Origin: an uncultured delta proteobacterium
Lineage (GTDB): Bacteria; Myxococcota_A; Polyangia; Fen-1088
Reading direction: 5' to 3'
Length of the DNA stretch: 64,000 nucleotides
Assembly (NCBI GenBank): GCA_963737265.1
Contig: CAVTRY010000011.1
Span: 1,184,001 to 1,248,000 of the forward strand
Positions 1 through 14,964 of this stretch are shown in pieces. Both the position numbers and the translations under genes were made by a program. The notes beneath the pieces were generated by a model that did not search any database, was not told the origin of the DNA, and worked only from the letters and a program-made list of their open reading frames with translations. Positions within the stretch are counted from its first letter, which is position 1. Each line of letters begins with the position of its first letter.

Positions 1-370
1 TGACGACCATGCGGCACACGAGGGGCTCGATTTTTCCGAGAAGTGCCTCGACCTCGGCGCGGCTGACGACGGCCGGAAGCTGCTGCTTGACCCGTGGCCA
101 CGGGATGTTTTCGACCTCGGCGGGACGCTCCAGCGTGACCGCGTACAGGAAGTGCAAGCTGGCGACGTACAGTTTGATGGTGGATGGACTCTGCCCGCGC
201 TCGTGCTGCGCGAGCAGGAATTGCCTGATCTCGGGCATGCCCATCTCGCCAGGTGGGCGCATGAAATGCCGAACGAATTTCGTTGCGCACCACAGGTAGC
301 TTTCTTGCGTGCGAGGGGAGTACTCACGCAGCTTGAGATCGGACGCCATTTTCTCGTACAGTTGACCCAT
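1..370 (-). CDS. Tyrosine recombinase, N-terminal part (Phage_int_SAM_4-like domain), truncated by window edge; resembles integrases paired with IS91-like transposases
   Basis: Not in the ORF track. Manual translation from the ATG at 370 gives MGQLYEKMASDLKLREYSPRTQESYLWCATKFVRHFMRPPGEMGMPEIRQFLL...SPSTIKLYVASLHFLYAVTLERP...LPAVVSRAEVEALL. RBS AAGGAG lies upstream and the frame stays open to base 1. Confidence 0.85.
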   Translation of the reverse strand, partial: MGQLYEKMASDLKLREYSPRTQESYLWCATKFVRHFMRPPGEMGMPEIRQFLLAQHERGQSPSTIKLYVASLHFLYAVTLERPAEVENIPWPRVKQQLPAVVSRAEVEALLGKIEPLVCRMVV

Positions 371-472
371 GTTTCATCTCCTTGTGTCTGCCGGCGCCCG
401 CCCATCGGGCGCCGGTACTCACAAGGTCAACCACAGACAAGCAAGCTCCGAAACTGCCGCGCTAGCGGCTTG

Positions 473-546
473 GTTCAACAAGCCGTGGCACCTGACGATC
501 GGTCGCCTTCGGCGCCCGCTCGCAGGTGAACGCCAGGGCGTTGGGC
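473..546 (+). other. attC site 1 (R'' fused to recombinase-element terminus)
   Basis: GTTCAAC-AAGCCGTGGCACCTG...CAGGTGAACGCCAGGGC-GTTGGGC. Confidence 0.85.
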
Positions 547-3567: not shown

Positions 3568-3780
3568 ATGAGCAAGAAGAGCCAGCCCAAGACGCACAGA
3601 GTCATGCCATCGGCAAAACCAGTCAAGGACGAGATGATCCGGATGCGGATACCTGAGGATCAGAAGGTGGCCCTGGAAGCTGTAGCGAGCGGAGAGGGGT
3701 TGGATCTGTCTACCTGGCTTCGGCAATTGGCCCTACGGACAGCGGGGCTCCTACCAGGGGTCAGGACGGATCAGCGCTAA
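3568..3780 (+). CDS. Ribbon-helix-helix (DUF1778-like) DNA-binding protein
   Basis: KDEMIRMRIPEDQKVALEAVASGEGLDLSTWLRQLAL. Confidence 0.75.
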   Translation: MSKKSQPKTHRVMPSAKPVKDEMIRMRIPEDQKVALEAVASGEGLDLSTWLRQLALRTAGLLPGVRTDQR

Positions 3781-5162
3781 TGGCGAACGAACGCCTTACG
3801 GAGAACATCGTTCGTGATCATCTTCGTCTCAAGGGAGGAGATGGGATCAAGGTTGAAGAACAGGCCAGCTTGGACCCTGTGATAGCGGCCGCTATGAAGA
3901 AGGCCAGCAAACACGGTGCTGGCACCGGAAAACCAGAGTTCATCGTTACACATCAAGAGGCACCTGACGAAGTCATCTTGTTCGAGTGTAAAGCTGATTC
4001 CGGTTTTCATGAAAGCGCGAGACGACGCGCCGGACAGGATTCCACCCCGGCAGATATCACAGCTTGCGCCGTCGACGGTGTTCTACACTACGCCAAGATC
4101 CTAGCCGCACATCGCAACGTGATCGCCGTTGCGGTAAGCGGCCAAAAGAAATCGGAACTTCGCGTTTCCACCTATCGCTGTGTCAAGGGTGCGGATACCC
4201 CAGAACCTCTACTAGAGGCGGATGGACGCCAAGTTGAACGACTGCTTTCTGTCAAGGAATACCTTCATCTGTTTAGAATGGATCGAGCCGTTATCCACCA
4301 AAATGTGGATCAGTTGATGGCACACACACGAGAGGTGCATAATTTTCTTCGTGACTACGCAAAAGTAACCGAGGCCGAAAAACCGCTTGTCATTTCGGCC
4401 ATCCTGTTGGCTCTTCAGCATCAAGCGTTCAAGAAGTCATGGAGCGTAACGACCGACCAAGATCTAGCCACAGCAACCTATGAGGCCGTAGAGAAGAGTG
4501 TACGACGGGCCATCAACGCATCGAAGCGCGAACTGATGATGGCCGCCTACTCTTTCTTAAAGACGCACCCAGAACTAACAAAGGAACGAACCCTCCACCC
4601 GAAGGGCCAACCCGCCATTGAGCAATCGCCGCTTCGTTATCTCATCCAGGACATCGAAGCTCAGGTCTTACCGTTCGCAGAGATGTACCCAGACTTCGAT
4701 GTAATCGGGCAGTTCTACGCGGAATTTCTGCGGTACACCGGCGGGGATGGCAAGGGACTCGGCATTGTGCTTACGCCTAGGCATCTGACCGAATTATTCG
4801 TCGAGATCTCTCAGGTGAACAAGAAGGACACGGTGCTGGACCCGTGTGCTGGAACCGGCGGGTTCCTCATTTCCGCGATGATGGCTATGGACCGCCAGGC
4901 GCGCGGAGACGAGGAGATGAAGAAGGCAATTCACGAAAATCAGATCATCGGTGTTGAGCAAAGATCCGACATGTTCGCGTTGTGTGTATCGAATATGGTG
5001 CTCAGGGGTGACGGACGATCAAACCTTCACCGTGGTGACTGCTTCGATTCTGCAATTGCGGACCAGATCAGCAGTCCGTCGCGTGCGAAGATGCATCGAC
5101 CAAACAAGGGACTTCTTAATCCCCCATTCGCTCAGCGTGGTGAAGATCAGCATGATGCATGA
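3780..5162 (+). pseudogene. BcgI-alpha-like restriction endonuclease/N6-adenine methyltransferase, C-terminally truncated
   Basis: PEF...FECK nuclease-like motif, GIVLTPRH, motif I VLDPCAGTGGFL and motif IV NPPF. The ORF stops about 9 codons after NPPF, at a junction. Confidence 0.8.
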
Positions 5163-7144: not shown

Positions 7145-8564
7145 TTACAGCTTACGTGCTCGCCTGGGATGGATTGTGTAGTTCCATTCACCGTGGAACG
7201 GCAACCGGGTGATACTGAGTTCCGCCAATTCCTCGTCAGTGATCCGTCGGCCGACTGGGTACTTGCGCCGATCGAGACGACACTGGACTGCGAGTCCCTT
7301 TGCTGTGGTCGTTCCTGCAATCAGGCCCACGATTGTCTCGTAGTCACGTAACGGCTCACCCCGCCAGTTCGACGAGATGAATGAAAAGAGCCGGTGCTCG
7401 ACCTTGTTCCATTTGCTCGTTCCTGGCGGAAAGTGGCACACCTTGATCGATAGACCGGTCTGATCGGAAAGTCGCTGCAGTTCGACCTTCCACAAGCGCA
7501 GCCTGTAGCCGTTGCTGCCGCCAGAGTCAGCCGTGACCAGCAGCTGGGTGGACTGAGGATACAAGTGCCTTCCTTCGTGCTGCCACCATCCGCGTATCGA
7601 CGCTACCGCGAACGCCGCCGTGTCGTGGTCGGTTCCGACATTCACGAATCCCGTGTTGCGTGCCATGTCGTAGATGCCATATGGGTACGCGCGGGGCACT
7701 GACGGATCCGGGAAGTCGTGGCCGTTCACCACGTCGGCAGTCCCGTTGAGTCGCCACTGCTGTCCGGCGTTTCGATAGTTTCCGACGAGTTCTTTCTTCT
7801 TGGTGTCCACCGAAATCACAGGGCACATCTCCGCCATCGTACGTCGCACCTCTCGATTGATGTGCCGAAACTGGGCATCGCGATCCGGATGATCCTCCCA
7901 GGGCCATCGCATCATCCTACATCGACGCAGGATCCATCAGAGTCTCGGCCATTTCTGGAAGGTTTTCCCCTGGGGTCGGTGCGCGCGCCGGTGTGCAGGC
8001 AGGTTCGGCAGCGCGCACGGGCGCGGAGACCGGCATAACTATCGGCATCTCCGCAAGATCACTTACAATTTAGATGCGTTGGCCCTGATGATCCTCCCCC
8101 TCTTCGGTCTTCCTGTTCCCCTGCAAGCTATAGTCCATGTCTCGTAGAAGTTGGGCAACCTTCTCGTGGCTTATTGGGTGGCGGCGCGCAGTCAACTCCA
8201 GAGCGAGGGCCCGAGTGCTCTTGCATGTCCACCGAAGCGGCGATTCCGGATCGCCGAGGGTAAGCGGCTCCACCAGCGACTCAAGCAGCCGCGGCAGCTC
8301 GGGATCGTATGTCACCAGTTTCGGGCGTCCGGCTCCCTTCCGTCGAACTCGCTCTCCATGCAGAGGTTTCTGTCGCAGTTCCTTCACGCCCTTCGTAATG
8401 GTCACCCGTGACAGGCCGCATGCGCGACTCACGAGACTCACGCCGCCATAGCCAATATTGGTGGCCTCCGCCGCCGCAAGCATACGCCGAGCACGCTCAC
8501 TCAAGTGTGGCCACACCAGACGGAACTTCCCTTTGAGACTTTGTGTCGGGTCCAATCGGCTCAA
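7145..8564 (-). pseudogene. ISAzo13 (Rhodopirellula-type) transposase split by a MITE
   Basis: GDPESPLRWTCKS, HPDRDAQF, ISVDTKKKELVG, TADSGGSNG and PPGTSKWNKVEHRLFS. Removing 7899-8097 restores TEEGEDHPDR in frame. Confidence 0.9.
7899..8087. mobile_element. 189-bp MITE with ISAs1-like ends
   Basis: 15-bp TIRs CAGGGCCATCGCATC / CAGGGCCAACGCATC and a 10-bp target duplication ATGATCCTCC (7889-7898, 8088-8097). Confidence 0.88.
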
Positions 8565-9996: not shown

Positions 9997-10392
9997 ATGT
10001 TCATTTCAAAGTTCATAGCGAAGGTGATTGGCGAGAAGGGGCAATGGCGGCAGTACAAAGCGCGCGCAAGACAACTTCCCGCGAGCTATCGCACGGCAGT
10101 TGAGGCGCTGGAGCGGTACCTGATGTACCTCGGGGGCGGGGATGACGGGACTGCGATTTTCGCGGACCTCGTCGACCTGTTCGAACAGAGCGCGGCGAAC
10201 CGGACCCCGATCCGCCAGATCGTCGGGGAAGACCCCGTCGAGTTCATCGAGACGTTTGTCCGAAACTACCCGAACGGTCAGTGGATCACCAGGGAGCGAG
10301 AACGGCTGACCAACGCCATCCAGCGCGCCGCCGAAGAAGAAGCGAGAGAAGCGAGCTCAAATCCTCTGGAAAAGAAAGGCGGGGAAAAATGA
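9997..10392 (+). CDS. DUF1048-family protein
   Basis: EKGQWRQYKARARQLPASYR...DLVDLFEQSAA...IVGEDPVEF; the usual PadR neighbour. Confidence 0.85.
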   Translation: MFISKFIAKVIGEKGQWRQYKARARQLPASYRTAVEALERYLMYLGGGDDGTAIFADLVDLFEQSAANRTPIRQIVGEDPVEFIETFVRNYPNGQWITRERERLTNAIQRAAEEEAREASSNPLEKKGGEK

Positions 10393-11633
10393 TTCGGACG
10401 ACGAGCGAAACACTCTTGCGGGGACACGTCGAGGACGGCTGGGGGAAGGTGGCCGATGTCTTCCGGGCGAACTTCGAAGGGAGCCCCGGAGAGGTCGGCG
10501 CGGCGTGCTGCGTCTACGTGGACGGCCGCCCCGTCGTCGACTTGTGGGGCGGCCTCGCCGACCGAGACACGAACCGGCCGTGGGACAGGGACACCATCGT
10601 TGCCGTCGCATCCACGACCAAAGGCGCCGCCGCGATCTGCGCGCATCTGCTGGTCCAGCGAGGCAAGCTGGATCTGGACGAACCGGTGGTCAGGTACTGG
10701 CCGGAGTTCGGCGCTGCCGGCAAGGAGCAGATTCCGGTGCGCTGGCTGCTCTCACACCAGGCCGGCCTGCCGATCGTCGACGGACCGCTGACCTTCGAGG
10801 AGGCCTGCGCTTGGCATCCGGTAATCCGGGCGCTCGAGGCGCAGAAGCCGTTGTGGCAGCCGGGCACCGAGCACGTCTACCACAGCATGACCTTCGGGTT
10901 CCTGGTCGGAGAGCTGGTACGGCGGATCACCGGCAAGTCGCTCGGCACGTTCTTCGCCGAGGAGATCGCCGCTCCGCTTGGGCTGAGCGCCTGGATCGGG
11001 CTGCCCGAGGAGCAAGAGGGACGGGTGGCCGGGGTCGCGTACGCCGCTCCGTTCACGATGGAGGAGATGACCGCCGGGATGATCGAGACCACTGGCCTCG
11101 ATAGGGCCACGGTCATCGCCTGGATGAACGCCGTGTGGAGTCCGGACTCCGTGCAAGCCCGCGCCGGCGTGCTCGGCGGCGCTCTCGATCCCGCCAGCGG
11201 TTACATGAACACGCGGGCCTGGCGCGCTGCCGAGTTCCCGGCCGCGAACATGTGGGCGGACGCTCGATCGCTGGCCCGCATGTATGCGGCCACGGTGAGC
11301 GAGGTCGACGGCGTGCGGCTGCTGGAACCAGCCACGGTCGAGAGAATGATCGTCGTCCAGACCGACAAGACACGGATGAACGGCCTGCCGCCGGGACTCG
11401 ATATTCCGGCCAACCGCTCCTTCTACATGTCGCTCGGGTTCTGGCGGGCATGCCCACCGATGCCCTGGGCCGGGCCGCGCTCGTTCGGCCACCCCGGCTC
11501 CGGCGGATCGGTCGCCTTTGCCGAGCCCGATGCCGGTGTCGGCTTCGGCTACGTGACGAATCTGTGGTCATTCAGGATTGGCGAACCGCGCGCGTCGAAC
11601 CTGGCCGCGGCGGTCGTGGCCTGCCTCGGGTGA
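10389..11633 (+). CDS. Serine hydrolase, beta-lactamase-related (family VIII esterase-like)
   Basis: STTK (SxxK), LLSHQAGL, YHSMTFG and FGHPGSGG. Confidence 0.9.
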   Translation: MIRTTSETLLRGHVEDGWGKVADVFRANFEGSPGEVGAACCVYVDGRPVVDLWGGLADRDTNRPWDRDTIVAVASTTKGAAAICAHLLVQRGKLDLDEPVVRYWPEFGAAGKEQIPVRWLLSHQAGLPIVDGPLTFEEACAWHPVIRALEAQKPLWQPGTEHVYHSMTFGFLVGELVRRITGKSLGTFFAEEIAAPLGLSAWIGLPEEQEGRVAGVAYAAPFTMEEMTAGMIETTGLDRATVIAWMNAVWSPDSVQARAGVLGGALDPASGYMNTRAWRAAEFPAANMWADARSLARMYAATVSEVDGVRLLEPATVERMIVVQTDKTRMNGLPPGLDIPANRSFYMSLGFWRACPPMPWAGPRSFGHPGSGGSVAFAEPDAGVGFGYVTNLWSFRIGEPRASNLAAAVVACLG

Positions 11634-12685: not shown

Positions 12686-12712
12686 GCTGCTAGTCTAGCG
12701 GCTTGGTTCAAC
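12686..12712. repeat. Second copy of the recombinase-element terminus
   Basis: GCTGCTAGTCTAGCGGCTTGGTTCAAC; shares CTAGCGGCTTGGTTCAAC with 462-479. Confidence 0.8.
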
Positions 12713-12831
12713 ATGCCGTTGCAGCTCTCGTAGGCAGTGCAAGTAAAAAGAACAGGGAGTGATTCGGGTCGTCTGGGCACAGATGGTCGGCCGCGGACGG
12801 CCGCTCGCAGCTTAACGGCAAAGCGTTAGGC
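12706..12831 (+). other. attC site 9
   Basis: GTTCAAC-ATGCCGTTGCAGCT...GCAGCTTAACGGCAAAGC-GTTAGGC. Confidence 0.8.
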
Positions 12832-12849
12832 GTATTCCACGGAGTTCAA

Positions 12850-13182
12850 ATGGTCAGCTGCTATTTGCGATATGTCATTGATCCTCACAAGCTTCCCGAA
12901 TTTGAAGCGTACGCGAAGATGTGGATCCCGTTAGTCGAGCGGTTTGGTGGTCAACACCACGGCTACTTTCTTCCACACGAGGGCCCCAACAACATCGCAA
13001 TAGCACTGTTCAGCTTCCCGAGCTTGGCTGCCTACGAGGACTACAGGCGTAAGGCAGCGACTGATCCAGAGTGCCAGGCAGCCATGTCCTACTACAGGGA
13101 GACACGCTGCTTTCTGAGCTTTGAACGCAGTTTCATGCGCCCGGTGCTCGGGGAAGGAAACGCCCAACAAGTAGGCGTTTGA
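12850..13182 (+). CDS. NIPSNAP-family protein
   Basis: CYLRYVIDPHKLPEFEAYAKMW...HHGYFLPHEG...ALFSFPSLAAYEDYR; RBS GGAG. Confidence 0.9.
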   Translation: MVSCYLRYVIDPHKLPEFEAYAKMWIPLVERFGGQHHGYFLPHEGPNNIAIALFSFPSLAAYEDYRRKAATDPECQAAMSYYRETRCFLSFERSFMRPVLGEGNAQQVGV

Positions 13183-13254
13183 TCCGGCCGCAGCCATAGA
13201 TATTCCCCTGACTGGCTGAATTCGCGCGCGGCCGGATTGAACGTCTGGTTGAGC
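13162..13254 (+). other. attC site 10 (divergent type)
   Basis: GCCCAAC...AGGCGTTTGATCCGGCCGC / GCGGCCGGATTGAACGTCT...GTTGAGC hairpin. Confidence 0.65.
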
Positions 13255-13697
13255 CAAGCCGCGGGTTCGGGAGGAGAAGTGACTCTTCTGCCCATGGGCA
13301 AAGCAGGTCGACTTTTCGAGCAGCGGGGCGATCGGGACGATGCTTTTGCTGGGGTCGGAGGTTGTCGACGGTCGCGAGTGAACCGAGAAAACGAGAATCG
13401 TGCGTGCTCGAAGGCGCGGGAAACCCGTCGCCCACGACGAACGCACAGAGGTTTCCATGGCCGTCGAAATGAAGACGACAGCCTGGTTGCAGGCGACAGC
13501 TCCAAGCGAGAGGACATTCATGACGAGTCGAGCGGCGGGGCGCGCCCAATCTTGCTATGCCAGCGCGCGAATTCGACTGCCTCGGACTTCCAAGGCTTGC
13601 CTCATGACCTCAACCATCCGAACCGCCGGATGCGGACCCGCATGTCCGGTGGTGTGGGAGGGGCGCAGCGGGCAATTCCGCTGCCCCCTATCCCGAT
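13255..13697 (+). ncRNA. Class C group II intron remnant, ORF-less (5' boundary uncertain)
   Basis: Domain V GAACCGCCGGATGCGGACCCGCATGTCCGGTGGTG (CGC triad) and domain VI GGGAGGGG...CCCCCTATCCCGAT at 13620-13697. They are preceded by a residual IEP C-terminus NLAMPAREFDCLGLPRLAS*. Confidence 0.85.
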
Positions 13698-13762
13698 CAA
13701 GGCCTTGCGTCCGACGATCGGCCGCGGACGGCCGCTCGCGGGTGAACGCCAAGGCGTTCGGC
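13698..13762 (+). other. attC site 11, R'' replaced by intron 3' end
   Basis: CAAGGCCTTGCGTCCGACGATCGGCCGCGGACGGCCGCTCGCGGGTGAACGCCAAGGC-GTTCGGC. Confidence 0.75.
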
Positions 13763-13784
13763 GGACATCCGAAGCCACGCGAAT

Positions 13785-13831
13785 CCGGTACAGGCTAGAC
13801 CGGTACAGGCTAGACCGGTACAGGCTAGACC
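13785..13831 (+). repeat. 15-bp tandem repeat x3
   Basis: CCGGTACAGGCTAGA repeated three times exactly. Confidence 0.95.
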
Positions 13832-14830
13832 TGCCGGTGCCAAGCCCGACGTGCTACTATCCCCTTGGCCAGTTTGCGCATGAGCGCGACGGCCGCGCGC
13901 GGGGCGCGGCCACCGTCCCGCTGCCTTTTGCGCTGGTACCAGGCGTTGGCGATGGGGTCGGCCTGAATCCAGCGAAAGACGGCGAGCCACAGAAGCTGGC
14001 GCACGCGAGATGGGCCGCGCTTGGTGATCTTGATTTGGCCCTGCACGGTGCCGCTGCTCTTCTCCTTGAGGTTGAGGCCCATCGCCTTGAGGAAGGCGCG
14101 GGTGCCAGAGAACGACCTTGCATCGCCGACCTCGGCGAAGATCGCGGCGGCGGTGGTGTGGCCGACGACGGGCGCGAGAGCGGCGGCGGGCGTGGTGGCG
14201 GCGAGTTGGTCGACCTTAGTTTTGGCCGCGGCGAAGGCGCGATGTGCTCGATACCCCGTCGGCGATGGCCATCAAAGCGTCGCGTTCAAGGCCGACTAGC
14301 GGGACGCCGACGGATGTCCTGGCCGATGCGATGACGGCGGCGATCTTGTCGTCGGCAATGAGCCTGCGGCTGATACCAAGCAGAAGCTTGGTGGCCTGGT
14401 CCGGGGCAGCGGCGACAGCGGCTGGCCCGCCAATGCGCGCGAGCAGCGCCATGAGCGACGACGAGGTCAACTCGATCAGCGTGGGCAACTCAGGCCAGTG
14501 GCGAGCGAGCCAGCTTTCCAGGCGATGCACGAGCCGCAGATAGCGCTCCTGGTGCAGGTCCAAAATGGCGAGCGCTGCGTGGAGCTGGCGGCGTTCTGGA
14601 ACCTCGTCGGGCAGGCGGGTGGACAGGCCATCGGCGTGCAGCCTGGCGATGATGGCGGCAGCCTTGGCGTCGTGAAGACTGGGTACGCCGTCGAAGATTT
14701 CCTTGGCATCGTGGGTGCGCTTGCCGCTGACCATGAACACGGGGAATGCATACTCTTCGAGCTGGTGGCGAAGCACATCGCCGTAGGTGCCGGAAGGCTC
14801 CATCACGGTTTCGACGGTGATGCCAGCGGC
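13825..14830 (-). pseudogene. IS110-family transposase, truncated and internally deleted
   Basis: MEPSGTYG...SLHDAKAAAIIA (DEDD domain) and GLNLKEKSSG...ITKRGPSRVRQLLW...AVALMRKL (Transposase_20) lie in different frames. Confidence 0.85.
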
Positions 14831-14871
14831 GCGGAACCTGCGCCTTTTTCATCAACTACCTTTAGCTGAAT

Positions 14872-14917
14872 GTCGGCCGCAGACGGCCGCCCGCCGCTGG
14901 ACGGCAAGGCGTTAGCC
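14872..14917 (+). other. attC site 12, right half only
   Basis: GTCGGCCGCAGACGGCCGCCCGCCGCTGGACGGCAAGGC-GTTAGCC matches the right part of attC2. Confidence 0.75.
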
Positions 14918-14964
14918 CGAGCTCGGGAAATCGTCGCAAATAGTATCTCCTGTGATACCATAAG

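Follow-up and report, generated by a model that had tools for sequence, protein, structure and literature searches.

We analysed a 64,000-nucleotide (nt) stretch of DNA from an uncultured delta proteobacterium (the window, taken at its full length), in which a preliminary description had placed a small group II intron at positions 13255-13762, within an array of integron cassettes. Our results indicate that the region 13162-13762 is a single attC site, that of a NIPSNAP-family cassette, split by a 530-nt composite of two dead mobile-element ends. One of these belongs to an insertion sequence (IS) of the IS91 family and the other to a class C group II intron. We put the probability of this explanation at about three in four, a figure that covers it as a whole: the split attC, both element tails, the history that we propose for them and the behaviour of the intron's relatives. 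The flagged stretch is a dead scar, ordinary in itself, rather than a small complete intron, and 13162-13762 can neither splice nor transpose, while recombination is probably no longer possible either. From left to right the locus consists of the NIPSNAP open reading frame (ORF), the R'' box, the IS91 end cut at the eighth codon from the end of tnpA, the intron tail beginning at the twentieth codon from the end of its reverse transcriptase (RT) gene, a single C and the remaining attC.

The cassette ORF (12850-13182, + strand), which was taken from the ORF list and is now read as 110 amino acids (aa), was assigned to its family by Pfam (PF07978, E 2e-19). When the frame is read across the junction, its final five sense codons and its stop fall within the inserted IS91 end. 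The R'' box of its attC, GCCCAAC (13162-13168, + strand), is severed from the remaining site and was recognised from its coordinates and by comparison with seven intact sites. What remains of the attC (13698-13762, + strand) comprises C, an AAG spacer, L'', a central hairpin, L', a CAAGGC spacer and R' (GTTCGGC, 13756-13762), as delimited by alignment by eye with the seven intact sites and by the fold. The 530 nt inserted between the two parts are bordered by a CAAG repeat (13168-13171 and 13698-13701). Joining GCCCAAC to AAGGCCTTGCG... (13699 onward) gives the same 5' half as is found in the seven intact attC sites; these share its subtype, come from six other genomes and read RYYYAAC-A(A/T)GG(C/A)GTTG(C/A)ACCCGACGATCGGCC...GGGTGAACGCCAAGGC-GTTRRRY. 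By our own count GCCCAAC and GTTCGGC are complementary at six of seven positions, and the bottom strand of the attC part at 13698-13762 folds at -23.2 kcal/mol (z-score -4.11). Once brought together, 13162-13168 and 13698-13762 thus have R''/R' complementarity, an L''/L' stem with an extra base and a position 3' of a cassette ORF, as an attC should. An R'' box lying 530 nt upstream and a remaining attC at 13698-13762 therefore make up one NIPSNAP attC that has been split. The preliminary description had correctly recorded that CCCGAT is followed by CAAGGCC (at 13697-13698), from which it had read an attC missing the start of its R''. This second part cannot be kept: the box exists, as GCCCAAC at 13162-13168, and is separated from its site by 530 nt.

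The first 376 nt of the composite (13169-13544, - strand) are the truncated oriIS-side end of an IS91-family element. In a search of 61 genomes (the window genome, G000, and 60 others of its family), 13166-13544 was found to be 100% identical to G000:C13:567215-567593. That copy continues into a - strand ORF with the domains Y2_Tnp (E 6e-56) and Zn_Tnp_IS91 (E 5e-17). The end in the window contains a terminal palindrome (approximately 13172-13250), a non-coding stretch and a 3' scrap of tnpA, namely its last eight codons, RAPPLDSS, and the stop (13518-13544, - strand); Pfam found nothing in the - strand frames of 13169-13544. The same order (YAAC, a strong palindrome, 220-280 nt and the tnpA stop) was observed in G015 and G051, two members of the family from other genera. 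The C-terminal tnpA motif ARAPPxxSS, followed by the stop, is conserved in G015, and G051 has the same layout. At all three loci with more than 300 nt available downstream, the palindrome leads into an IS91 tnpA. The stretch 13255-13544 is an IS91-family end and not intron.

The position of this end follows from the way in which the element inserts. We inspected four copies in the window genome (the window copy, C13:567215, C13:371664 and C23:17954), and each of them adjoins a different cassette at RYYYAAC, the identity among them beginning at AAC; a fifth copy is listed at C12:370924, the flank data covering the first four. In seven flanks the tetranucleotide adjoining oriIS is GTTG or GTTA. 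On the bottom strand the R'' box GCCCAAC of the NIPSNAP cassette reads GTTG, the target tetranucleotide adjoining the oriIS end. The oriIS end of the element goes in next to GTTR, the bottom-strand reading of R''. Together with a Y2 HUH transposase, a palindromic oriIS beside a tetranucleotide with T at its second position and the absence of target duplication, this places the element in the IS91 family.

The same flanks settle the nature of the hairpin upstream of the intron tail. The preliminary description was right that a hairpin is present (13162-13256, -23.3 kcal/mol, z-score -4.05) and wrong in taking it for an attC, there called attC10, since it is the oriIS palindrome of the IS91-type element. 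Despite its fold and its AAC...GTT ends, it is identical from AAC onward behind four different cassettes. The cassette supposed to lie between 'attC10' and 'attC11' arises only from this reading of an IS91 end palindrome as an attC. With no cassette lying between two attC sites, the suggestion of an intron-derived cassette intermediate loses its object. We also considered an IS110-type transposase N-terminus on the - strand of 13256-13549, a candidate prompted by 62 nt that recur beside a fragment on C21; it was dropped when Pfam returned nothing in two window - strand frames or in the C21 fragment.

A complete element of the IS91 type was found in G051 (L041, G051:C398), where a tyrosine recombinase gene lies upstream of tnpA. 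Its far end reads ...GCCGCGCCAGCGGCTTCGTTCAAC, ...GTTCAAC and is followed directly by the rest of an attC. A terIS end is also present in the window at 452-478 (..GCCGCGCTAGCGGCTTGGTTCAAC), where it adjoins an attC remainder (window 1-478, on the - strand). Both element ends carry heptamers that resemble R boxes, GTTGAGC near oriIS and GTTCAAC at terIS, and insertion at R'' therefore leaves an attC-like site on both sides. The tyrosine recombinase of the element (MGQLYEKMASDLKLR...) starts at about position 370 of the window on the - strand. A truncated integron integrase had been considered for this recombinase at the left end of the window (TIGR02249, partial, 99.5 bits) and was rejected, as the gene travels with the IS91-type element; because it belongs to that element it gives no evidence on the polarity of the array. 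The attC at 12713-12836 is preceded by 18 nt left over from the same terIS end (12695-12712). A second IS91-type element (L002 2838-3305; G000:C23:17400-17835) differs at its C-terminus (..CPKCGGKM..) and has tandem repeats of 76 nt close to its end. It is inserted in the tnpA of the first type (L002) and in the oriIS-side end copy on C23, and about ten further copies of its end occur in the genome.

The second part of the composite is an intron tail of 153 nt (13545-13697, + strand, sense to the cassettes). It begins with an RT remnant of the last 20 codons and the stop (13545-13607, + strand), identified by its translation, PNLAMPAREFDCLGLPRLAS, and by its match to a full-length RT: by our own count it agrees at 12 of 19 residues with the C-terminal end of a 457-aa RT from the same genome (L006). 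It ends with domains V and VI (13621-13697, + strand) and the intron 3' end ...CCCGAT at 13697, after which CAAGGCC begins. These were identified through Rfam, the relatives and the fold. RF00029 scored 41.2 bits at 13621-13697 on the + strand for a gathering score of 40, with E-values of 1.1e-4 over the whole window and 1.2e-6 over 701 nt. Domain V (approximately 13622-13653) has a stem with a 2-nt bulge and a tetraloop, and domain VI (approximately 13655-13695) has a bulged branch site near the 3' end. At the nucleotide level, 13566-13706 shares 98 of 141 positions with the full-length intron of the same genome (blastn), and an intron in G012 is 87.7% identical to the tail over 114 nt. We aligned domains V-VI of the window copy with the ends of seven related introns, found in five genomes. 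The resulting consensus fold contains 29 pairs, of which ten show compensatory changes; the window copy preserves every one of the 29 while showing double changes of its own, to GC at columns 19/38 and to AU at columns 21/36. From the preservation of every pair together with these two changes it follows that the tail descends from a working intron of a distinct sub-lineage. On both points the preliminary description was accurate: domains V and VI on the + strand are intact, and the RT is reduced to about 20 C-terminal codons.

It had further proposed that 13255-13697 is a complete ORF-less class C intron lying after a true attC, or an intron-derived cassette. The intact domains V and VI and the presence of a hairpin upstream speak for this, and its 443 nt would fall within the range of ORF-less class C ribozymes. 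We consider it scarcely credible nonetheless. The GUGYG 5' end is absent from the flagged segment, and the Rfam D1-D4 families gave no match in 13100-13800 even at E <= 10. A blastn comparison of 13150-13565 with domains I-III of two full-length relatives (word size 7 for the same-genome intron and 9 for that of G012) showed no similarity to either lineage, so that neither Rfam nor blastn found domains I-III or a 5' end. Instead, 13166-13544 matches an IS91 element's end without a difference, down to the last codons of tnpA, and the RT remnant begins abruptly at the border with it. As for an intron-encoded RT/maturase ORF in domain IV, 20 codons are what remains. Tails truncated at the 5' side with intact 3' ends were also seen directly after the stop codons of ordinary genes at G012:C263 (L043) and G030:C56 (L025), one consisting of domains V-VI only and the other of the 3' half of domain V and domain VI; such decay is therefore common.

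To read the orientation of the intron and of its relatives, the sense strand of the array has to be known. All three Pfam-supported cassette ORFs of the window (N6_Mtase, Beta-lactamase family and NIPSNAP) are on the + strand with an attC downstream, which shows that the + strand is the sense strand of the cassettes. The first two are cassette-sized ORFs at 3780-5159 (N6_Mtase, E 7e-18) and 10281-11630 (Beta-lactamase PF00144, a broad serine-hydrolase family, E 8e-72), each followed by an attC on the + strand. The opposite assignment, with the - strand as the top strand of the array, would explain the repeats at AA/C. It was rejected in view of these three ORFs, and the IS91 reading explains the borders.

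The full-length relatives of the intron show where the lineage inserts. The window genome contains four 1886-nt copies that differ by at most one mismatch and lie in four different flanks. Those on C7, C11 and C17 are in the top strand of attC sites, in the arrangement R''-AAG-L''...L'(..CTGAACGG) / GTGCG...CCGAT / CAAGGC-GTTRRRY, and the copy on C14 sits after an ordinary GC hairpin (..CATCGG/C). A 5' intron fragment at C13:213487 follows ..CTTAACGG of another attC. The copy at G053:C7, with an RT 87% identical, is in an attC likewise; an internally deleted mini-copy at G053:C2 is in an attC too, with both junctions intact; and a copy in G051 (84% identical) has the same 3' junction, the only one read there. 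In total, seven insertions in three genomes occupy an attC's top strand, between L' (AACGG) and the spacer before R', in sense orientation to the cassettes. For the G053 insertions, the flanking Phd/ParE and BrnT genes are on the strand of the intron. On the other hand, the copies of G004 and G012 follow classic terminators after stop codons. The G053:C2 mini-copy (L042, reverse complement 958-1307) measures about 350 nt; it begins with the initial 7 nt of the 5' end and continues with a portion of domain IV, the start and end of the RT and domains V-VI; its domains I-III are deleted and it therefore contains no ribozyme.

The RT of these relatives is 457 aa long, with RVT_1 and GIIM domains and no endonuclease domain, and its best plasmid matches are about 57-61% identical and unclassified. 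From an alignment of domain I, the presumed exon-binding site 1 (EBS1) of the attC-homing copies is CCGUU, complementary to AACGG in L'. In our own reading of the alignment EBS1 covaries with the intron-binding site (IBS1) of the exon: CCGUU with AACGG, GUGA with UCGU in G004 and CAA with UUG in G012. IBS1 is short and IBS3 is a single C. The 3' exon starts with C in the 11 other junctions read for the lineage, and the three non-attC copies share only that first C. The relatives therefore behave as class C introns, inserted in sense just after a stem-loop or terminator and lacking an endonuclease domain; the window copy has lost its 5' exon. They do not behave as IIC-attC introns, which insert in the bottom strand at R'' (TTGT/T) in antisense, as the lineage's seven attC insertions all lie at AACGG/C of the top strand, in sense.

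We then surveyed the 80 loci with the nearest RTs, taking one genome per species and locating 3' ends with a covariance model built from our own alignment. Among 81 ends listed, two cut off by the end of the locus were left out, giving 79 3' exons, and for 60 ends the intron's 5' end could be recognised and the flank measured 60 nt or more. A hairpin ends at most 14 nt from the insertion site in 54 of these 60 5' exons. Only three of the 79 3' exons are attC-like, and the one of these with a readable 5' exon (L050) is again inserted in the top strand. The three belong to L091 (two intron ends) and L050, records of metagenome-assembled genomes from other groups, with 3' exons CGGCAAGGC-GTTCGAC and CGGCCAGCC-GTTGGGC; the 5' exon of L050 holds R''-L''..L', so that top-strand use of attC recurs outside the family. 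Judging from this survey and these alignments, the clade is one of terminator-homing class C introns that occasionally take the top-strand hairpin of an attC for a terminator, with an EBS1 apparently adapted to it in this genus. Which strand of attC is used therefore seems to depend on the intron lineage and not on the attC. Chromosomal arrays contain sense-oriented introns that should be able to splice from cassette transcripts. The top-strand insertion mode put forward in the preliminary description thus holds for the relatives, with seven insertions in three genomes. The window copy itself says little about insertion mode, having lost its 5' part and having next to it, on the upstream side, an IS91 fragment with no relation to it. 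That description had also named, as an outcome that would speak against it, full-length relatives lying antisense in attC or after terminators. No antisense attC copy was found among them, and positions after terminators or hairpins were seen for the C14, G004 and G012 copies and for 54 of the 60 5' exons surveyed.

These relatives also allow us to weigh ectopic retrohoming as an origin for the window copy. Under this explanation an attC that was still intact received the intron by reverse splicing into its top strand at GCCCAA/CAAGG, where R'' meets the spacer, and the IS91 end came later and removed its 5' part. The first C of the 3' exon is as in the 11 other lineage junctions, and CAAGGC is the usual 3' exon of the attC-inserted copies. 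However, sharing of the first C alone by the three non-attC copies implies that CAAGGC is not required for homing. Moreover, an intact cassette has no hairpin upstream of R'', and the clade inserts after hairpins (54/60), while a 5' exon ending in ..CCAA fits no EBS1 read from the relatives. The order of events is a further difficulty. Had the intron been there first, the bottom strand would have read ..CGCAC/TTGGGC, and an IS91 insertion beside CTTG would have left GCCCAAG, whereas GCCCAAC is observed. Taken together, we regard this course as quite improbable.

Another possibility is that the junction arose by chance, through a microhomology deletion. The intron would have been at the canonical L'/CAAGGC-GTT site of an attC lying upstream, and a deletion between the CAAGGCGTT there and its identical counterpart in the 5' half of the following attC would have removed R', a cassette and R''. 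Intact sites of the subtype do carry CAAGGCGTT in both halves. Such a deletion nevertheless leaves unexplained both the matching R'' at the other border of the insert and the IS91 oriIS end, placed as in the other inspected copies, and the 5' exon hairpin (L''/L') that it requires is absent upstream of the intron tail. We deem it very unlikely, more so than ectopic retrohoming.

The most likely history, which we infer from the arrangement of the two ends rather than demonstrate, has three steps. An IS91-type element would first have inserted at R'' with its oriIS end beside GTTR, its documented habit in this genome. A class C intron would then have reverse-spliced on the + strand after the terIS palindrome (GCCGC-GCTA-GCGGC, then 9 nt), at the border with the attC remainder. 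Finally, a deletion would have fused the eighth-last codon of tnpA to the twentieth-last codon of the RT, removing everything between. Several points weigh against this explanation. The sequence does not reveal in which order the events took place. In none of the genomes searched did we find the precursor that this history calls for, an intact IS91 element bearing an intron at the terIS border, and tblastn found no complete copy of this IS91 type in the window genome. The terIS end that would have stood at 13162-13762 is reconstructed from window 452-478 and from G051. The history also takes a coincidence, since the intron must have landed no more than 1 nt from the IS91/attC border. The geometry of a hairpin followed by 9 nt fits class C targets, as an argument and not as a test, and the EBS1 that might have paired with ..TTCAA was lost with the rest of the intron. 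The L'' of the split attC differs from the intact sites at three positions, through decay or plain variation. Lastly, the oriIS palindrome with the target R'' and the internal GTTGAGC resembles an attC, and it may be recognised by IntI.

A different sequence of events would dispense with an intron insertion at this site. The composite could have moved to R'' as a unit, as a defective IS91 derivative in which the intron tail already stood beside oriIS, through an IS91 transposase supplied in trans or by one-ended transposition halted at a surrogate end. The intron would then never have inserted here, and its position beside R'' would reflect only the target choice of IS91. Both borders of the 530-nt insert are where an IS91-type insertion at R'' would place them, and on the - strand the intron 3' end is preceded by CTTG, a canonical IS91 tetranucleotide (PMC13181058); CTTG would adjoin every attC-inserted intron copy with the 3' exon CAAGGC. 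Yet a second junction between an IS91 end and an RT is absent from the genome, where window 13545-13593 matched nowhere else, and none was found in the 61 genomes, although G012 matched 13584-13698 at 88%. Besides, the composite still requires a deletion, and movement as a unit is no simpler than the history of three steps. We hold it to be unlikely, if less so than the other alternatives, and retain insertion of the IS91-type element, insertion of the intron and deletion as the best explanation.

Beyond this locus, the observations raise a broader and rather doubtful proposition: that a class C intron lineage has specialised on the top strand of its host's own attC sites, through the pairing of EBS1 CCGUU with L' AACGG, and that the IS91-type element acts as a cassette mimic. 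If this were true, intron copies would be transcribed together with the cassettes and could splice out. Near-identical copies (at most one mismatch in 1886 nt) do sit after ordinary hairpins too, in the same sense orientation. A single cell would then contain a gene-terminator/intron arrangement and an attC/intron/spacer-R' arrangement, the recombination partners of the Leon-Roy idea of cassette genesis, and the geometry of the two partners would join a gene to an R' box. In the case of the IS91-type element, the oriIS palindrome with GTTGAGC and the GTTCAAC of terIS would rebuild attC-like sites, through which IntI could move the element or neighbouring cassettes. Apart from this proposition, an IS91-type end palindrome that passes as an attC will mislead counts of attC sites and cassettes in these genomes, whether made by eye or by software. 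With the IS91-type element, moreover, a third sort of mobile element is seen to target the R'' box, beside IIC-attC introns and the IS1111-attC group.

Other features of the array and of the genome were noted. Directly downstream of the split attC, three 15-nt tandem repeats (CAGGCTAGACCGGTA) lie at 13776-13831, adjoined by a frameshifted remnant of an IS110-family transposase (13828-14082, - strand; Pfam Transposase_20, E 2e-7) that takes up the space before the next attC at 14843-14922. The cassette array also contains an ISAzo13-family DDE transposase (7148-8564, - strand; DDE_Tnp_ISAZ013, E 9e-109 and 8e-21) whose sequence is divided between two ORFs. A TIGR02249 match of 456 bits at G000:C17:93644-94585 (L014) is the sole full-length integron integrase match in the genome. 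Downstream of it on its own strand, 3-5 kb away, lie attC sites and an intron copy; integrase and cassettes are therefore co-directional there. C-terminal intI fragments occur at similar distances from the C11 and C7 intron copies. Two copies of a group of three adjacent tyrosine recombinase genes were found, at G000:C11:1181970-1183516, just left of the window, and at C14:407412-409817. This group resembles a recombinase-in-trio element. One of its copies appears to cut the C-terminus of the IS91-associated recombinase at the left edge of the window.

Comparison with known systems places both elements within described kinds. Class C introns are described in a review as inserting at terminators and, more rarely, in attC sites (PMC4424553, citing Robart et al. 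2007). The introns described here resemble terminator-homing class C introns in having RVT_1 and GIIM without an endonuclease, in the sense orientation of copies after hairpins or terminators, in a short IBS1 and in a single-C IBS3. They differ in that most copies in this genus use the top-strand hairpin of attC; the window copy is a 153-nt tail. With the IIC-attC introns of the S.ma.I2 type they have in common that they are class C introns in cassette arrays, with the attC hairpin as target stem-loop and terminator-like hairpins as usable targets. PMC7923331 and PMC3001079 place IIC-attC introns in the bottom strand, inserted at R'' (TTGT/T) and opposite in direction to the cassettes, whereas this lineage enters the top strand at AACGG/C, in sense. 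The closest parallel is a single class C intron of Enterobacter cloacae, inserted in sense in the top strand of a class 1 integron's attC (Rodriguez-Martinez et al. 2012, J Bacteriol 194:150, as cited in PMC7923331). In a limited literature search this was the only case of a top-strand class C intron in attC that we found. To the extent that it is described there, it is alike in strand and orientation. It remains a single case in a class 1 integron, as opposed to seven insertions in three genomes of one family, with an EBS1 matched to the L' of the host.

The IS91-type element, in turn, is like IS91, IS801 and IS1294 in its Y2_Tnp and Zn_Tnp_IS91 domains, in the lack of target duplication and in an oriIS with palindromes downstream of tnpA. 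As outlined in PMC13181058, elements of the IS91 family make no target duplication and have an oriIS with subterminal palindromes beside a tetranucleotide with T at its second position and a terIS with one palindrome near the cleavage site. The element fits this outline, its target tetranucleotide being GTTG or GTTA and its terIS starting with GTTG, then a palindrome. It departs from the family in carrying a tyrosine recombinase gene upstream of tnpA, in that all flanks read are attC R'' boxes and in having R-box-like heptamers, GTTGAGC and GTTCAAC, at its ends. In a limited search, no IS91 element aimed at attC was among the literature matches listed. The behaviour of the intron is known in kind, and its recurrence and the EBS1 match are the new part. 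Both the introns that home to the attC top strand and the IS91-type element, which targets attC and has attC-like ends, are additions, if modest ones, to known kinds.

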